Assembly: GCA_041483195.1 (NCBI GenBank) | Contig: JBGPFC010000005.1 | Location: 100,958-164,957 of the forward strand | Direction: 5' to 3' | DNA: 64,000 nucleotides | From: Candidatus Eiseniibacteriota bacterium | GTDB lineage: Bacteria > Eisenbacteria > RBG-16-71-46 | Shown here: positions 26,557 through 44,325 of the stretch, one piece after another | How positions within the stretch are numbered: the stretch's first letter is position 1 | Layout of the letters: every line of letters starts with the position of its first letter | Program-made: the position numbers and the translations under genes | The notes under the pieces: model-generated | Database searches by the model: none | What the model saw: only the letters and a program-made list of their open reading frames with translations | Told to the model about the DNA's origin: nothing

Positions 26557-27834
26557 TCAGTGCATCGACTCCGGGCCGTCCACCACGCCCCCGGCGGGCA
26601 CGTGATCGCCGAAGTCGGCCTCGGTCACGAACGCTCCGATCCGCGCGTTGCGCCCGATCCGGATGCCTGCCGGCAGCTGCGCGCCCTTCCCGACCACCGT
26701 GAGTCCATGCGCGAGATGGTCGGGGCACGCGCGATTCGGAGCGGCGGCGTCGCCGTGCCCGATGATCGCGCCGTCCCCGATCCGCACCTGCTTGTCCACG
26801 ATCGCGCGATCGAGGACCGCGTTCCGGCCGACGAACGTGTCATGCATGACGATGCTGTCCCTCACGATCGCGCCGGCCGACACCGTCACGCCCGGGAACA
26901 GGATCGAGCGCACCACCTCTCCCGCGACGCGGCTGCCGTTCGCGACCAGGCTGCGCGCGGCGCGCCCGCCGTGCTCGATCATGACCGGCGGACGGTCCGC
27001 GCTCTGGGTGTGGATCACCCAGTCGGGATCGTTCAGATCGAGCGGCGGACTGTCCGAGAGAAACGCGAGATTGGAGTCGTAGTAGGAGTCGAGCGTGCCC
27101 ACGTCCTGCCAGTAGTCCTGGAAGCGGTACGCGAAGACCCGTTCGCCGCGCGCGACCAGCCGCGGGAGCAGATCCTTGCCGAAGTCGTGTCGCGAGTCCT
27201 CCATCACCGCGTCCTCGGTGAGCCAGCGGATCAGCGAATCGCGGTCGAACAGATACACGCCCATCGACGCGAGGCGCGAGCGCGCCTGCTTGGGCTTCTC
27301 CTGGAATCCGACGATGCGGCCGCTCGGGTCCGTCTCGAGGATTCCAAAGCCGCTGACCGCGGCCTCCGGCACCTCGGTCACCGCGACCGTGGCCGCGGCC
27401 CCGCTCGCGGCGTGGAATGCGTATAGCACGTTGTAATCCATCTTGTAGACATGATCGCCGGACAGCACCAGCAGCTGGTCGATGCGCCGTCGCCGCAGGT
27501 GGATCAGGTTCTGGTAGATCGCGTCCGCGGTGCCCTGGTACCAGTCGCTCTGCACGCTGCCGAGCGCGGGCTGCAGCACCTGGATCCCGCCGCGCGTGCG
27601 ATCGAGGTCCCACGGCCGCCCGGTTCCGATGTGCTGGTGGAGCGACGTCGGACGGTACTGGGTCAGCACGCCGATATCGTAGATCCCGGAGTTCACGCAG
27701 TTCGAGAGCGTGAAGTCGATGATGCGGTACTTGCCCGCGAACGGCACGGCGGGCTTGGCTCGCCGCTCGCTCAGCAGGCAGAGCCGGCTCCCCACGCCGC
27801 CCGCCAGGATGAACGCGTAGCGCGAGCTTCTCAT
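26557..27834 (-). CDS. glgC: Glucose-1-phosphate adenylyltransferase (catalytic)
   Basis: [50 protein letters not shown]. Confidence 0.93.
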
Positions 27835-29090
27835 CGCGCGTCCTCGTACCACGGCCGGTTCGGAATCACGGAGCCCGGCGCGATCTCGCCGGCGCTGAAG
27901 TCCGGCGGCCCGCCCCCGACCCCGATCACCGCCGCCCGCCCCACGCGCGCGCCGGGCGGGATGTGCGCGTCCTTTCCGACCAGCGTGAGTCCATCCAGCC
28001 AGGCGCTCTCGGGCGCGTGCGGGATCTCGCCGTAGCCCACCACCGCCCCCTCGCCGAGCCGCGCGTATTTGTCGATGATCGCGCGATCCACCCGCGCGCG
28101 ACGTTCCAGGGTCACGTCGGACATCACGACCGAATCGACGACCTGAGCCCCGGCCTCGACCCGCACCCCGGGAAACAGCACGGAGCGCCGAACCACGCCC
28201 GCGATGCTGCAACCGTTCGCGATCAGGCTGTCTTCGACCGCCGCGCTCTCGCGCAGCAGCACCGGCGGGCGCTCTTCGTCGCGGCTCAGGATCGGCCAGC
28301 GCGGGTCGTAGAGCGCGAGCCGCGGCTCGGCGCCGAGCAGTTCGAGGTTGGAGCGGTAGTACGAGTCGATGGTGCCGACGTCCTCCCAGTATCCGCCGAA
28401 CTCGTGAACCACGAGCCGCTCGCCGGCCTCGATCATGGGGCGCACCACGTCGAGCACGAGATTCACCGGGTGGCCGCGCAGCCACTCCCCCAGCACCTCG
28501 GTGTCGAACATGTAGATCCCCATCGACGCGTGCGGCGTGGGCGCGTGCACCGGCTTCTCGACCAGGCTGAGCACGCGGCCGTCGGGGTCGAAGGTGACCA
28601 TGCCGAAGCGCCGGGCTTGAGCGGCGGGAACGCGCGTGACGGCGAGCGTGGCGGCCGCGCGGTGCTCGAGGTGGGTCGCCAGCAGCGCGCGATAGTCCAT
28701 CCGGTAGACGTGATCGCCCGAGAGCACCAGCACGCGCGCCGGACGGCGTTCCATGATCGCGTCCCAGTTCTGGGCGATCGCGTCGGCGGTGCCGCGATAC
28801 CACCCGGACTGATTGCGGGTCTGGAACGGCTGGAAGATCACGACGCCGCCGCTGCGGCGATCGAGGTCCCACGCGCGTCCCGCGCCGATGTGATCGTGGA
28901 GCGAGATCGGCGCGTGCTGGGTGATGACCCCGACGTGCTCGGCGCCGGAGTGGCAGAGATTGCTGAGCACGAAGTCGATGATGCGGTACTTCCCGCCGAA
29001 CGGCACGGCGCTCACCGCGCGCTCCGCGGTGAGCACGCTCAGCCGCTCGCCGCCGCCTCCGGAGAGGACCAACGCCATCGTCTCTCGCAC
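27831..29090 (-). CDS. GlgC paralog, probably GlgD-like subunit
   Basis: Same fold motifs but RAVSAVP in place of RAKPAVP and no DFG motif. Confidence 0.8.
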   Translation of the reverse strand: MRETMALVLSGGGGERLSVLTAERAVSAVPFGGKYRIIDFVLSNLCHSGAEHVGVITQHAPISLHDHIGAGRAWDLDRRSGGVVIFQPFQTRNQSGWYRGTADAIAQNWDAIMERRPARVLVLSGDHVYRMDYRALLATHLEHRAAATLAVTRVPAAQARRFGMVTFDPDGRVLSLVEKPVHAPTPHASMGIYMFDTEVLGEWLRGHPVNLVLDVVRPMIEAGERLVVHEFGGYWEDVGTIDSYYRSNLELLGAEPRLALYDPRWPILSRDEERPPVLLRESAAVEDSLIANGCSIAGVVRRSVLFPGVRVEAGAQVVDSVVMSDVTLERRARVDRAIIDKYARLGEGAVVGYGEIPHAPESAWLDGLTLVGKDAHIPPGARVGRAAVIGVGGGPPDFSAGEIAPGSVIPNRPWYEDAR

Positions 29091-31230: not shown

Positions 31231-32796
31231 TCAGGGACGCCCGCGGCGCCCGGGCCTCGCGCCCGTCCGTGCGGGGGCCCCTCCCCGCTCCCTGAATGCG
31301 CGGGGCGCCCCACCGGAGCGCGGAGTTTGACCCCGCGCGCCTGCCCGCGGGAACCCACCGCCGCCGGCGCGGGCCGGACGCGGACCCGGGCCGGATCGCT
31401 CATTTCGAGAGGTCGGCCGGGCGGCGCGTGGGCGTGGCTTCGCGTTCGCCTCGGCGAATCGTTCCCGCCAATCCGAGCGGCGCGGGCCGCGGGCGGCAGG
31501 GATCGGTCGCTCATACCGCTCGCCGCGCCCGGGACGCTTCGGCGCGCGCGAGCGCGTCGCCGCGCCCGGTCGCTCGAACCGCTCGCGTCGCTCGGGACGC
31601 TGGGGCGCGCGTGAGCGTGTCGTCGCGCCCGGTCGCTCGAAACGCTCGCGGCGCTCGGGACGCTGGGCCACGCGCGAGCGCGTCGTCGCGCCCGGTCGCT
31701 CGAAACGCTCGCGCCGCTCGGGACGTTGCGGCGCGCGTGAGCGTGTCGTCGCGCCCGGCCGCTCGAAGCGCTCGCGTCGCTCGGGACGTTGCGGCGCGCG
31801 CGAGCGCGTCGTCGCGCCCGGTCGCTCGAAGCGCTCGCGTTGCTTAGGGCCCCGCGGCGCGGGTGCGAAGGGAGTGAATCCGCGTGCGTCGCGTCCACGC
31901 GGCACGGTGTCGCGCGCGGGCGGAGACGCGGCACGCGGGCGCGGCGTCGCTCCCGGCGCGCGCGCCGCGCCTCCTCCCAGGCGCGATGCGGCCCATGCCG
32001 CGTTTCTCCGGCCGGCGCCAGCCTCCGCACGCGGCGAGCGCGGGCCGCCCGTCCGTCCCGGGCGACGCAGCTGCGGACGCGCGGAGGCCGAGCGCAGACC
32101 GAGCACCTCGCTCTCGGACAGCTCGCGCCACATCCCGCGCGCGAGATCCCCGAGCCGGAGCGGGCCGTAGCCCCAGCGATGGAGGCGATGCACGAGCAGT
32201 CCGGCCGCCTCGCACATGAGCCGCACCTGACGGTGGCGGCCCTCGCGGAGGGCGATCTCGATCACGCTGTCCCCCGGCGTTTCGTCGCGAACCCGCACCC
32301 GCGCGGGCGAGCTCACGACGCCGGGCTCGAACTCGATGCCGCTCTCGAGCCGCTTCACCATGGCCGGCGATGGCGCGCGATCGGCGTGCACTCGATAGAG
32401 CTTGCTCACGCCGTAGCGCGGGTGCATGAGGTGATGCGCGAGCTCGCCGTCGTTCGTCAGGATCAGGAGTCCGCTGGTGTCGGCGTCGAGCCGCCCCACC
32501 GGGAACAGCCGCGCGCCGGCCGGCATGAACTCGCGCAGCGTGCGGCGTCCCTCCGGGTCGTCGAGCGTCGAGATCACGCCCACCGGCTTGTGGAGGACGT
32601 AGTACGCGAGCCGCGACACGCCGGGGATCGGCTTGCCATCCACCTCGATGCGATCGCGCTCGGGCTCGACCTGCGTGCCGGGTTCCTTCTCGATCACGCC
32701 GTTCACGCGCACCGATCCCGACTGGATGAGCGCGTCGCACTTGCGGCGCGCGCCAACGCCGCGCTGGGCGAGCAGCTTGTTGAGGCGGATGCTCAC
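31231..32796 (-). CDS. rluB: RluB/RsuA-family pseudouridine synthase with long Arg-rich repetitive tail
   Basis: S4 domain IRLNKLLA, HKPVGV, PVGRLDADTSGL, EGRHRQVR; follows scpB. Confidence 0.85.
   Translation of the reverse strand: MSIRLNKLLAQRGVGARRKCDALIQSGSVRVNGVIEKEPGTQVEPERDRIEVDGKPIPGVSRLAYYVLHKPVGVISTLDDPEGRRTLREFMPAGARLFPVGRLDADTSGLLILTNDGELAHHLMHPRYGVSKLYRVHADRAPSPAMVKRLESGIEFEPGVVSSPARVRVRDETPGDSVIEIALREGRHRQVRLMCEAAGLLVHRLHRWGYGPLRLGDLARGMWRELSESEVLGLRSASARPQLRRPGRTGGPRSPRAEAGAGRRNAAWAASRLGGGAARAPGATPRPRAASPPARDTVPRGRDARGFTPFAPAPRGPKQRERFERPGATTRSRAPQRPERRERFERPGATTRSRAPQRPERRERFERPGATTRSRVAQRPERRERFERPGATTRSRAPQRPERRERFERPGAATRSRAPKRPGRGERYERPIPAARGPRRSDWRERFAEANAKPRPRAARPTSRNERSGPGPRPARAGGGGFPRAGARGQTPRSGGAPRAFRERGGAPARTGARPGRRGRP
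31510..31840 (-). repeat. 63-bp coding tandem repeat, 5 copies plus a degenerate one (ERRERFERPGATTRSRAPQRP)
   Basis: cgcgcccgg(t/c)cgctcgaa recurs at 31561, 31624, 31687, 31750, 31813. Confidence 0.9.
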
Positions 32797-35450: not shown

Positions 35451-36103
35451 AGCGCAGCCCCCGCGCGCGGCACGCCGAACAGATCGAGGCACGCGTCGAC
35501 CGCGAGGCGCAGTGGCCCGTACAGGATCGCGTTCGACACCCACGGCGAGCTGAGCAGCATCGCGACCAGCAGCAGTCCGACCACCCGGAAGCTCTGCAGC
35601 GCGATGATGTGACGGAGCGGCAGGAATCGCATCAGCACCCACGATCCGTCGAGCGGCGGGATCGGGATCAGGTTGAAGAGCGCGAGCGCGCAGTTCAACA
35701 CCACGCCGGCGTAGCCGGTGATGCGCAGCGGGGCGAGGAACCCGTGCTCGGGCGCCAGCCGCGCGAGCGCCGCGAACGCGAGCGCGAGCAGCACGTTCGA
35801 CGCCGGCCCGGCGAGCGCCACCTTGACCGGATCGTTGCGCGGGCTCCGAAGGTTCGCCCAGTTGATCGGGACCGGCTTCGCCCACCCCAGCATGACCGGC
35901 GAGTGAAACAGGATCAGGGCGGCCGGCACGATCAGCGACCCGATCGGGTCCACGTGCGGCAGCGGGTTGAGCGTGAGCCGCCCCCGATCGCGAGCGGTCG
36001 AATCGCCATTCCAGAGCGCGACCAGCCCGTGGGCGCACTCGTGCACGACGACGCTCAGGACGAACGCCGGAAATACCAGGAAGAATCGAGGGTCGAAGTG
36101 CAC
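35447..36103 (-). CDS. Site-2 protease (M50) family
   Basis: HECAH, ALAGPASN, NLIPIPPLDG. Confidence 0.9.
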   Translation of the reverse strand: MHFDPRFFLVFPAFVLSVVVHECAHGLVALWNGDSTARDRGRLTLNPLPHVDPIGSLIVPAALILFHSPVMLGWAKPVPINWANLRSPRNDPVKVALAGPASNVLLALAFAALARLAPEHGFLAPLRITGYAGVVLNCALALFNLIPIPPLDGSWVLMRFLPLRHIIALQSFRVVGLLLVAMLLSSPWVSNAILYGPLRLAVDACLDLFGVPRAGAAL

Positions 36104-36263
36104 GCGGAGCCGCTCCAGCCGAGGGTGAAATGAAATTCAAAGCAGACTATCGGGATTGCCCAGAGGGGTCAAGGCTCGATGGCTTCATGTAGCGCGCGAA
36201 GCCCGGCGAGCTCGGCATTCGGGCGCATTGCCCCTCCCATGCGCGCTCGACTATGGTCCCGCG

Positions 36264-36821
36264 GTGAACGCTCCCGTCCGCCCCGAAGACATGCTCGATC
36301 GCGCGGTCCCCGATCTGGCGCTCCCCAGCTCGCTCGGGGGAGCGTTCGGCCTGCGCTCGCGCGTCGGTCTCGGCCCGCTGGTGCTGGTCTTCTTCATCCG
36401 CAACGGCACCCCCGGCTGAGTGCGCGAGATGCGCGAGTTTCGCGTACATCACGAAGCCATGCGGGCCGCGGGTCTCACGGTCGCCGGGATCTCGCTCGAC
36501 ACCGCGGAGAGTTCGCGGATGTGGACCGAGCGCCTGCACCTGCCCTTCCCCCTGCTCTCGGACGTCGACCGCCACGCGGGGGCCGCGTTCGGCGTGATCC
36601 GCCGCATCGGGCTCGGCGGATGGAACATCGAGTTCTTCCGCCGCGCGACGTTCCTCGTCGACGCGCGGGGCATGGTTGTCGCGGTGTGGGAGCGCGTGAA
36701 GGTCCGCGGGCACGCGCTGGACATCATGGACGTCGCGCGCGCGCTGGAGGAGCGGCCGCCGCACGCCGACGCCGAAGGCGGAGACCTCAGCCGCGCAGCG
36801 CGCGAATCACGACCAGCGTGA
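36264..36821 (+). CDS. BCP/PrxQ-type peroxiredoxin with in-frame UGA at the peroxidatic position (probable selenoprotein)
   Basis: One frame from GTG 36264: LVLVFFIRNGTPG-TGA(36417)-VREMREF..GISLD..LPFPLLSD..RATFLVD..VKVRGHA; SECIS-like hairpin follows. Confidence 0.85.
36428..36450 (+). promoter_or_regulatory. Candidate bacterial SECIS element
   Basis: GATG-CGCGA-(GTT loop)-TCGCG-(TA bulge)-CATC; loop begins with G 18 nt after UGA. Confidence 0.6.
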
Positions 36822-38580
36822 GGTCGTCGCTCGGCCCGCGATCGCCGGTCCAGGCCTCGACCGCCCGCACCACGCCGTCCAGCACCTCCTGGCTGCTCAC
36901 CTCGCCCATCGCCTTCACGGTCTGCTCGATGCGGAGGCGGCCGAACTGCTCGCCGCTCGGCGACTCCGACTCCGACACCCCGTCGGTGTACATCACCAGC
37001 ACGTCGCCGGGCCGCACCTCGACCGGGCAGTCCTCGTAGCGCGCGTCGGGAAGCACACCGAGCGCCACGCCGCCCTCCGTGAGGTCCTCGATCGAGCCGT
37101 CGGCGCGAATCAGGAACGGCGGATCGTGCCCGGCGTTCGCGTAGATCAGCATGTGGTTCTTGAAGTCGAGCACGCCGTAGAACGCGGTCACGAACTTGTC
37201 GCGGTCGATGCTCTCGTGGAGCAGCAGGTTGACCTTGCGCATCACCGCGCGGATCGCGAACTCGTTGCGGATCTCGGCGAGCAGGCTCATCCGCACCCCG
37301 GCCATGATGAGCGCGGCCGGGATGCCCTTGCCGGAGACGTCTGCGATCGCGATGCCGAGCCGGGTCTCGCTCACCGGGATGAAATCGAAGTAGTCCCCTC
37401 CCACCTCGTCGTGGGCGTGCGCGGCGCCGGCGAGGTCGAAGCCCGGCACCTGCGGCGCCCGCCGCGGCAGGAACGACTGCTGGATCTCGCGCGCGATCGC
37501 CAGCTCCTTCTCGAGCCGCCGGCGCTCGAGCATGTCGCGCGTGAGCCGCGCGCGCTCGATCGCCACCGCGGCCTGCGAAGCGAAGGCCGACACCAGCTCG
37601 AGGTGTCCCTCGTGGTAGGCGTCCTCGACGTCGTGCTCGAGGTTGAACACGCCGATCGGGCGGCCGTCCACCAGCAGCGGGGCGGCCAGCTCGCTGCGGG
37701 TCTCGTGTCGCGCCGCGACGTAGCGCGCGTCGCGCCGCACGTCGGGAACGATCAGCGGCTCGCCGGTCTTCGCGACCCACCCGACGATCCCCTGTCCGAC
37801 CTGGAGCCGGAACGCGTCGTCAGAGCCCTCGGGGTATCCGCTCTCGCTCACCAGCTCGAGCGCGAGCGTCTTGCGGTTCACGAGGTAGATCGCGGCGGCG
37901 GCGTAGTTCACGACCTGGCGCAGCGACTTGAAGATCGCCTCGATCACGCCGTCGAGATCGAGCTGCGTCGAGAGCGTCTTCGCGACCCCCAGCAGCACTT
38001 CCTTCTCGAGCGAGCGGCGCTCGGTCTCCTGGTACAGCAGCGCGTTGTCGAGCGCGAACGCGACGTGCTCGCCGGCCACGTCTAGGTTGTCGAAGTCGGA
38101 GTCGCTGAAGTCGCCCCCGCCGCGCTTGTCGAGGCATTCGATCGCCGCGAACGCGTCGCCGCGGCGGAACAGCGGCATCACGAGCGCTGCGTGGAACGCC
38201 GGCGTCTCGCCCCAGAACTCGGGGCGCGGGTCGGCGCCGGTGAGACGCAGCGGCTGCTGGTGCGCGATCGCCCATCCCGCGAGCCCCTCGCCCCCGGCCA
38301 CCCGGACCTCGGTGCCGGCCAGGTCCGAGTCTCCGGCGAACTCGCGGCCGACCAGCCGGCGTCCGCCGCGGCGCGCCACCCAGATCCGCACGCGCTCCGC
38401 GTCGACCAGCCGCCGGCAGTGACGGCTCGCCGCGCGCAGCAGGTCGGTGAAGCTGCTCGAGTCGCCGACCGCTTCGGACGACGAGGTGCCGAGCGCGGAG
38501 AGCGTGCGGAGCGCGATGTCCGAGGGCGACGGCACGTGCGGCATCGGCGTGTCGGGGAGGGTGGGTTCTGACATGTTCAT
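36787..38580 (-). CDS. GAF-GAF-SpoIIE (RsbU-like) PP2C phosphatase
   Basis: Two GAF-like domains; VGGDYFD, ADVSGKG, NAGH, YTDGVSE, DDLT. Confidence 0.9.
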   Translation of the reverse strand: MNMSEPTLPDTPMPHVPSPSDIALRTLSALGTSSSEAVGDSSSFTDLLRAASRHCRRLVDAERVRIWVARRGGRRLVGREFAGDSDLAGTEVRVAGGEGLAGWAIAHQQPLRLTGADPRPEFWGETPAFHAALVMPLFRRGDAFAAIECLDKRGGGDFSDSDFDNLDVAGEHVAFALDNALLYQETERRSLEKEVLLGVAKTLSTQLDLDGVIEAIFKSLRQVVNYAAAAIYLVNRKTLALELVSESGYPEGSDDAFRLQVGQGIVGWVAKTGEPLIVPDVRRDARYVAARHETRSELAAPLLVDGRPIGVFNLEHDVEDAYHEGHLELVSAFASQAAVAIERARLTRDMLERRRLEKELAIAREIQQSFLPRRAPQVPGFDLAGAAHAHDEVGGDYFDFIPVSETRLGIAIADVSGKGIPAALIMAGVRMSLLAEIRNEFAIRAVMRKVNLLLHESIDRDKFVTAFYGVLDFKNHMLIYANAGHDPPFLIRADGSIEDLTEGGVALGVLPDARYEDCPVEVRPGDVLVMYTDGVSESESPSGEQFGRLRIEQTVKAMGEVSSQEVLDGVVRAVEAWTGDRGPSDDLTLVVIRALRG

Positions 38581-43734: not shown

Positions 43735-44325
43735 ATGAGGCCGCGCGCGGGGCTCGCCATCGCCCTCCTCGCGGCGCTCGCGTTGTTCGCGTGGCGCTCG
43801 CAGCTCTTCACCGTGAGCCGGCCCGGCGAGCGCCCCCGCGCGCTCGCGCTCATCCCGCGCGCGGCGCGCGCGCGCGTCAGCTTCGAGGTGGTGCTGCCGG
43901 CGGTGCCGGTCGGCATGGACCGGCTGCGCGAGAGCGACGGCCCGCTGCTCGTTCATTACTGGGCGCCGTGGGAGCGCGACGGCGCGACCCAGGCCGCGCG
44001 GCTCGATTCGCTGCGGCGCGATCCCGCGCTCGATCGGCTGCGGGTCGTGGTGGTCTGTTTCGACCCGTTCCCATCGGTCGCGCGCTACATCGCGCGGCAG
44101 CGCCTGCGGCTGCGCGTGCTGCTCGAGCACGATCGTTCGCTGCGGCGCGCGCTCCCGTGTCCGAGCGTCCCTTACACCTACGTGATCGACGCCGCGGGAC
44201 GGATCGCGATCGCCCAGAGCGGCGAGGTGGACTGGTTCGCGGCGGGCACGCGCGCCGCGCTCGATTCGCTGCTGGCCGAGCCCGACGACCGCGCGCCGGC
44301 TCTGCCCGCGAGCCTTCCGAGCTGA
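43735..44325 (+). CDS. TlpA/ResA-like thioredoxin-fold protein lacking CxxC
   Basis: N-terminal TM; LLVHYWAPWERDG; SVPYTYVIDAAGRI. Confidence 0.65.
   Translation: MRPRAGLAIALLAALALFAWRSQLFTVSRPGERPRALALIPRAARARVSFEVVLPAVPVGMDRLRESDGPLLVHYWAPWERDGATQAARLDSLRRDPALDRLRVVVVCFDPFPSVARYIARQRLRLRVLLEHDRSLRRALPCPSVPYTYVIDAAGRIAIAQSGEVDWFAAGTRAALDSLLAEPDDRAPALPASLPS

Follow-up and report, generated by a model that had tools for sequence, protein, structure and literature searches.

The DNA stretch analysed here (the window; 64,000 nucleotides) contains two adjoining open reading frames, 36156-36419 and 36420-36821, and these raise the question whether the TGA codon between them ends one gene or lies inside a single gene for a selenoprotein. 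Both belong to one and the same frame of the plus strand, on which all features of this gene lie, and the TGA at 36417-36419 is its sole interruption. When this frame is read through from the GTG codon at position 36264 to the next TGA stop codon, the resulting gene (36264..36821) would encode a PrxQ/BCP-type peroxiredoxin of 185 amino acids that carries the sequence FFIRNGTPG-U-VREMREF and contains not a single cysteine. Frame and translation thus confirm what the original prediction had claimed, namely one frame cut by a single TGA and a 185-residue, Cys-free product. Residues past approximately position 165 form an unconserved tail, and the gene overlaps by 35 nt with a convergently oriented PP2C gene. 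The best reading of the data, to which we assign a probability of about 0.85, is that the gene is monocistronic, is probably transcribed into a leaderless mRNA, and encodes a cytoplasmic peroxiredoxin (Prx) of PrxQ/BCP type with selenocysteine (Sec); it would be a second copy in addition to an ordinary 2-Cys BCP and is found at a trpS/PP2C locus in part of one Candidatus Eisenbacteria family.

The read-through product matches the Pfam AhpC-TSA domain (PF00578) with a score of 82.2 bits (cut-off: 26), and an AlphaFold2 model derived from 21 aligned sequences (mean pLDDT 91.5) yields top fold matches that are all BCP/PrxQ proteins. In alignments with solved PrxQ/BCP proteins, residue U52, specified by the in-frame TGA (36417..36419), takes the place of the peroxidatic Cys, and the predicted placement of the TGA on this very position is hence borne out. 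Thr49 of the TxxU motif (36408..36410) is Thr in 19 and Ser in two of the 21 clade loci, while the catalytic arginine Arg127 (36642..36644; RRATF), whose retention had likewise been foreseen, is invariant in all 21 loci and in 118 of 118 database fragments and aligns with the corresponding Arg of solved BCPs. The Pro residue of the PxxxT/SxxC motif is replaced by Ile45 (36396..36398), a position that holds one of I, L, V and T, without a single P, in 21 of 21 loci. Twelve of the 20 TGA-containing genes are entirely Cys-free, and the other eight encode one Cys each, found at six different positions. The anticipated combination of a lost Pro and the lack of a resolving Cys therefore holds in the sense that no resolving Cys is conserved. 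Among the 118 fragments, 89 are Cys-free, 19 possess Cys84 and 12 possess Cys109, so that some sub-lineages may have a resolving Cys.

The closest solved relatives are PrxQ/BCP proteins from Xanthomonas campestris (5IIZ, 3GKM) and Burkholderia ambifaria (5ENU), with which the clade protein shares the fold (TM-score 0.86-0.90, normalized to target length; 33-36% identity), the Thr, the Arg and the peroxidatic register. It differs from them in having Sec for Cys, Ile for Pro, and no resolving Cys in either helix 2 (+5) or helix 3; Cys84 of the Xanthomonas protein aligns with Thr88. Fold, closest solved relatives, and a short chain lacking the C-terminal extension of Prx1 or Prx6 place the protein in the PrxQ/BCP class, whereas it scores below the equivalog cut-offs of the NCBIfam PrxQ and BCP models (NF053650: 79.7/260; NF006960: 60.4/140), and no NCBIfam model reaches its cut-off. 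As judged by these scores, it is a divergent paralogue and not a bcp equivalog, and without a resolving Cys in helix 2 or helix 3 it falls outside the atypical 2-Cys PrxQ proteins. The missing Pro, together with NCBIfam scores so far below the cut-offs, means that the peroxidase activity may be altered. This Pro has been described as absolutely conserved in Prxs (PMC4749874). The strict Prx motif is hence matched in the Thr/Ser at −3 and in the distal Arg and departed from in Ile45, and this excludes the protein from the strict motif definition, not from the published catalogue of Sec-Prxs: with PF00578 and the motif TPGU it belongs to the Prx selenoprotein family (PF00578, T/SxxU). The Sec peroxiredoxin that has reportedly been shown experimentally to be one is PrxU from Eubacterium acidaminophilum (work attributed to Sohling, 2001). 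The clade protein has the peroxidatic Sec in common with PrxU (NF040737) but represents another Prx class, scoring 22.4 bits against a cut-off of 270 for this model of 233 positions.

From these features, we consider it very likely that peroxidase is the main activity. The strongest competitor accepts a genuine selenoprotein that is not mainly a scavenger; it would serve as a peroxide sensor or redox relay in which Sec52, once oxidized, hands the oxidation on to the thiol of a partner such as the adjacent GAF-GAF-PP2C phosphatase, or as an enzyme for bulky lipid hydroperoxides. This would fit the long stem branch of the clade, its loss of the Pro and the resolving Cys, its conserved, clade-specific Trp120 hairpin, and the presence of a canonical 2-Cys BCP in the same genome. 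All 21 clade loci adjoin a trpS or a PP2C gene, with PP2C as a neighbor in 20 of them, and one published Sec-Prx is fused to a PP2C of another subgroup (PMC2398784, section 9). However, the gene is flanked by a divergent M50 peptidase gene and trpS on one side and by the convergent gene for the GAF-GAF-SpoIIE (PP2C) phosphatase on the other, an arrangement that makes it monocistronic and that excludes co-transcription with PP2C; moreover, trpS is kept at the loci as well, and the synteny may therefore reflect descent only. Since the Thr and the Arg, both of which are needed for peroxide cleavage (PMC7231847), have also been retained, we regard a sensor or relay function as unlikely and favor a peroxidase.

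To follow the recoded codon through evolution, we searched 60 related genomes and found an orthologue (44-69% identity) in 20 of 36 genomes of the same family; in the other 16, none was detected, so the gene is dispensable. Inspection of the 30 best loci and of the host's own BCP revealed TGA at the recoded codon in 19 of the 20 orthologues (17 genera), with open frames on either side, and TGC in one, which is the UGA/Cys alternation that had been proposed as a check; the remaining 10 inspected loci are canonical paralogues with Pro and CxxxxC. A scan of named genomes, many of them identical to those of the first set, gave 17 loci, 16 of which belong to the clade, all 16 with TGA, and 13 carry the title Ca. 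Eisenbacteria. When 151 genomes of the phylum were compared, 20 gave a match stronger than 1e-60, every one of them from the same family, and one more, divergent TGA member occupies the same locus. The 91 genomes belonging to other families reached 1.8e-33 at best, and the clade was not found outside the family. Within the genomes searched, it thus forms a long branch, set apart from other Sec-Prxs and confined to one Eisenbacteria family. An origin by duplication of the host's own BCP found no support in the trees, whose base is poorly resolved and in which the two clades do not group.

Three full-length Cys versions of the protein are known to us (L041 from genome G023, P0003 and P0004). They are nested within the clade in both trees, which suggests Sec-to-Cys reversals, and two of them have an extra Cys 4-5 residues ahead of the catalytic one (CxxxC or CxxxxC), perhaps a new resolving Cys. 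A further Pro-less Cys protein in a different genome context (L085) was tried as a sister of the clade and groups elsewhere. Second BCP copies in seven relatives were considered as same-locus Cys orthologues and discarded, being canonical Pro/CxxxxC BCPs, none of which is at the locus. Five of them, from one genus (L240, L242, L243, L245, L246), are fused to a C-terminal sequence that we take to be MsrB-like.

In databases, the gene looks like two units. The entry for the host gene is a protein of 130 amino acids, and among the best 120 of 202 matches in the protein collection, 118 are fragments of 106-135 amino acids (117 of which begin just past the recoded codon) and two are full-length Cys forms. 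Since 118 of these 120 are fragments, standard gene callers evidently miss or split the gene, as had been anticipated. Taken at face value, these entries would mean that translation stops at the UGA and that a 130-residue C-terminal piece is made from ATG 36429 as annotated. We consider this very improbable: such a piece would lack the catalytic residue, three full-length Cys members exist, and synonymous differences exceed non-synonymous ones on each side of the TGA in six of six comparisons, so that both halves, the N-terminal one included, are under purifying selection. In addition, the constraint on the RNA hairpin downstream of the UGA exceeds the needs of the protein.

This hairpin, the candidate SECIS element (36428..36447), consists of a 7-bp stem (36430-36436/36440-36446) and a GUU loop (36437-36439) that begins 17 nt past the UGA, with an additional G-C pair (36428/36447); a hairpin with a G-first loop at this distance had been proposed, and it proved to covary in 20 TGA genes. 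The segment 36428-36450 has a folding energy of −8.3 kcal/mol (z −2.4). Published constraints for bacterial SECIS elements call for a loop of 3-9 nt, a stem of 4-16 bp, a G in loop position 1 or 2, a distance of 16-37 nt from the UGA, and an MFE of at most −7.5 (PMC13188914); checked by hand, the 3-nt GUU loop, the 7-bp stem, the 17-nt spacing and the −8.3 kcal/mol comply with all of them, which answers the suggested SECIS prediction. Over the 20 TGA genes, 97.5% of 160 stem cells are paired, with changes on both sides in three pairs, and RNAalifold returned the identical stem. None of 500 shuffles equaled this pairing, a figure that is not a probability, since kinship among the sequences can beat shuffles; slid registers scored far lower. 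In one orthologue, a Glu is changed to Gly, yet the closing pair stays G-C, and five of six comparisons show no change in any of the four hairpin codons. The Phe residue encoded by the loop is specified by TTT in 19 of 20 genes, compared with 7 of 129 Phe codons elsewhere in those genes (1,268 of 21,329 in the genome-wide training set), because the loop sequence forces this rare codon. The hairpin core is absent from the TGC orthologue. The same strict geometry follows 93 of 84,077 genomic TGA triplets, which is chance level; the exact core located 12 nt after a TGA occurs a single time in the host genome, at TGA 36417. A search of 36100-36900 against Rfam gave nothing up to an E-value of 1. 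When the host sequence alone is folded from the UGA onward, a longer, shifted hairpin that includes the UGA is favored (−16.8 to −17.9 kcal/mol). We rejected it as the SECIS element, as it is absent from the conserved structure of the relatives: across the 20 sequences, conservation and covariation are limited to the short apical hairpin. A ribosome positioned at the UGA would presumably cover the 5' arm of the longer structure.

The start of the gene is supported by the same comparison. In 20 of 21 loci (the exception is L027), an ATG or GTG precedes the recoded position by 47-51 codons. A putative −10 box, TATGGT (36252..36257), is situated 6 nt before GTG 36264, and TAnnnT occurs 6-7 nt upstream in 16 of the 20 loci with a start (random background: 0.5%). 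It is preceded, with an 18-nt spacer, by a putative −35 box, TTGCCC (36228..36233); 15 of these 16 loci have a TTG hexamer at a distance of 17-19 nt upstream of the box. A consensus promoter scan called no sites, the TATGGT box included; its two terminator-like matches fall within the coding sequence and were set aside. None of the 20 loci with a start has a Shine-Dalgarno-like motif. The shared start and box and the lack of such a motif point to GTG 36264 as the initiation codon and to an mRNA that is probably leaderless. The alternative starts ATG 36291 and TTG 36156/36228 were rejected because the orthologues share a start at about −51 codons together with the box preceding it.

Two further explanations for the TGA fare worse still. 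That the gene is a pseudogene, or that TGA is a sequencing error for TGC or TGT, might be entertained because a single base change turns Cys into TGA and 16 of the 36 same-family genomes lack an orthologue, but TGA in 19 of 20 orthologues from 17 genera, flanked on either side by open frames, already refutes it, and contigs from three of four other sequencing runs, one of which is a possible source of the window, cover 36417-36419 and carry the identical base instead of the TGC or TGT that would have spoken against the prediction. In two of the runs, contigs of diverged strains differ from the window near 36417-36419 and not within it; this, and the agreement among the contigs, is why we do not take the TGA for a base-calling error. 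No RNA run was among those listed as containing the sequence, which bears on expression neither way. Equally negligible is the possibility that an alternative code or a suppressor tRNA assigns Trp or Cys to the UGA, which would accord with the Cys of homologues in this column, given that TGA is the commonest stop codon of the host (914 of 1,406 high-scoring long ORFs) and that the sole TCA anticodon among its 63 tRNAs is that of tRNA-Sec (one more tRNA has an unreadable anticodon).

The machinery for Sec incorporation, whose presence had been set as a test, is in place. In the host genome (G000; 96.8% complete), selA, selB and selD score above curated cut-offs, and tRNA-Sec (69.9 bits; anticodon TCA) is encoded. 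The selD gene (contig C9:87191-88583, minus strand) lies immediately upstream of the tRNA-Sec gene, with selA and selB on separate contigs, and itself contains an in-frame TGA (CxxU-type) followed by a hairpin with 17-nt spacing and a GGA triloop. All 19 genomes of the TGA-bearing relatives have selA or selB above the cut-off; three of them, which are incomplete assemblies, lack one of the two and one has only a partial selA. A UGA aligned to the Cys of homologues and kept in relatives is what characterizes a bacterial selenoprotein. Judged from these sequence data, it is close to certain that the gene is a real selenoprotein gene, and just as firm is the prediction that UGA 36417 is decoded as Sec52.

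A coding-score and hairpin scan of the host genome revealed other candidate selenoprotein genes: selD, an ArsM-like methyltransferase (C1:43434, minus strand), an AhpD/CMD-like CxxU protein (C26:30292, plus strand), an UshA-like PCGU protein with a multiheme tail (C10:57756, minus strand; 272.9/275 bits), two tandem secreted UxxC redoxins with a C-terminal FlgD-Ig domain (C1:100498 and C1:99525, minus strand; L086), and one unclassified family. Each of the two redoxin genes has its own in-frame TGA, and the ArsM-, AhpD- and UshA-like genes have an in-frame TGA with a hairpin. Four of these genes (selD, those for the ArsM-like and AhpD-like proteins, and the unclassified one) likewise have a G-first loop that starts 17 nt past the UGA; the other three hairpins differ. 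The unclassified gene (C46:23861, minus strand; L089, L247-L266) encodes an exported protein of 179 amino acids with an F[TS]-U motif and a near-invariant 17-nt/triloop hairpin; TGA is present in all 20 loci inspected, there is no Pfam match, and the YHS selenoprotein model gives 14.7/70 bits, making this a candidate for an uncatalogued selenoprotein family. Elsewhere in the window, 43735-44325 (plus strand) encodes a membrane-anchored thioredoxin-fold protein with a weak AhpC-TSA match, WAPWERDG at the active site and no CxxC; 31231-32796 (minus strand) encodes an RluB-like pseudouridine synthase whose long tail, rich in Arg and Pro, is built from tandemly repeated units of about 19 amino acids; and 26557-29090 (minus strand) holds two adjoining genes that are, by their motifs, presumably GlgC-like (ADP-glucose pyrophosphorylase).

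How might such an enzyme work? SelB and Sec-tRNA would bind the GUU-loop hairpin 17 nt downstream of UGA 36417, leading to the insertion of Sec52. The Sec52 selenolate would then attack H2O2 or an organic hydroperoxide and be converted to the selenenic acid, as Thr49, Arg127 and the fold suggest. The Sec version of the Prx reaction has been computed to be favored, with Thr and Arg assisting the selenolate attack (PMC7231847). Selenenic acids are reduced by thiols, and in GPx a reversible Se-N bond can be formed instead of over-oxidation (PMC8533274); Prxs that lack a resolving Cys depend for resolution on a second protein or a small thiol (PMC4749874; PMC8113037). By analogy, the clade enzyme would operate like a 1-Cys PrxQ with Sec. 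It resembles the 1-Cys Prxs (AhpE, Prx6, and the third of PrxQ proteins without a resolving Cys) in having no internal resolving residue and differs from them in its Sec, in a host with bacillithiol-type genes and no match for gshB or glutaredoxin. This host has bshA above the cut-off adjoining a bshC-like gene (C7:64931-68609, minus strand), and both Trx and TrxB score above the cut-off. Hence, Sec52 may be resolved from outside, as in 1-Cys Prxs, most likely by bacillithiol via a mixed selenenyl-sulfide, or alternatively by thioredoxin/TrxB; we put bacillithiol as the first reductant at even odds. The bshC-like gene, which is in two pieces (147.6 and 113.1 versus 265.8), and the best YpdA-like match (169.8/339.9) score below their cut-offs, and bacillithiol recycling therefore stays putative. 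Because selenium resists over-oxidation, the enzyme would be able to do without a resolving Cys of its own.

The protein does not represent a new kind of system. Sec-Prxs (COG1225) were reported with 43 genes from the Sargasso Sea (PMC1088965), 12 from genomes (PMC1794560) and 253 from the GOS dataset (PMC2398784), and the bacterial selenoprotein family "Peroxiredoxin (Prx)" is listed under PF00578/COG1225 (Bcp) with the motif TxxU (PMC13188914). Sec-PrxQ proteins were thus catalogued between 2005 and 2008, and the Eisenbacteria clade is a new branch, or lineage-specific member, of a family known for some twenty years. It is like this family in its peroxidatic UGA, TxxU, PF00578 and a SECIS element just downstream, and unlike it in that the Pro is replaced throughout, whereas a 2026 review calls PxxxTxxU highly conserved (PMC13188914), in its probably leaderless mRNA, and in its long branch within one Eisenbacteria family. 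GOS supplement 3 contains Cys-free full-length entries (JCVI_READ_768057, 1048784, 1000727), a Pro-less entry (1065060) and entries that are both Pro-less and Cys-free (1278961, 1288519; PMC2398784); the clade motif NGTPGU has no occurrence in this file (PMC2398784). A metagenome scan with F[YF]xxxxTPG-TGA-xxE returned at least 120 loci, 117 of them Prx-like; among the Prx-like loci listed, 22 of 117 are Pro-less, 18 of 68 full-length ones are Cys-free, only two belong to the Eisenbacteria clade, and 49 of 117 have the identical 17-nt/GUU hairpin. Each trait stressed at the outset is therefore real and not rare. We consequently rejected the Cys-free or Pro-less state as a novelty, and the rarity that the original prediction implied is not supported, Sec-PrxQ being catalogued, such members being present in the 2008 dataset, and eight of 20 clade TGA genes having one Cys. 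A second Pro-less Sec-Prx clade, YI[RK]A[FS]TPGU, emerged from the metagenome loci (L112, L138, L140, L155, L157, L158, L166, L167, L196); it has a conserved Cys 98-99 residues downstream, possibly a C-terminal resolving Cys. Literature searches found no paper pairing Eisenbacteria with a selenoprotein and, among the papers listed under Sec-Prx, resolving Cys and Prx Pro, no study of Pro-less or Cys-free Sec-PrxQ; the terms sought have no occurrences in the main text on deep-Sep (PMC12013277).

With the same motif filter, the Pro is absent from 8 of 28 Sec clusters and from 4 of 94 Cys representatives (Fisher p 0.0008), a comparison of different libraries that are not phylogenetically independent. 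The Sec clusters stem from the 106 of 117 sequences that were long enough; 55 of 149 Cys representatives failed the filter (unfiltered, 12 of 143 are Pro-less), and so few of them lack the Pro even though a Pro-less profile was used to rank them. It is tempting, though decidedly tentative, to propose that selenium relaxes the Pro-Thr-Arg architecture of Prxs and that both the Pro and the resolving Cys are lost time and again among Sec-PrxQ lineages. The clade might then be a fixed end-point: a Pro-less, Cys-free monoselenol peroxidase, made from a leaderless mRNA and either recycled through bacillithiol or held in reserve as a selenenylamide. Its Cys revertants might compensate by acquiring a further Cys within the active-site loop (two of the three nested Cys forms). 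That three of three Cys members of the clade are also Pro-less argues against selenium as the factor that relaxes the need for the Pro.

Collectively, these data indicate that a family-wide, predicted antioxidant gene of an uncultured phylum sits in databases as catalytically dead fragments, a systematic annotation miss. In this clade, one Pro-less enzyme occurs naturally in both a Sec and a Cys form; through these forms, the conservation of the Pro in Prxs can be tested, and the same Sec/Cys pair bears on what selenium gains an enzyme without a resolving Cys.
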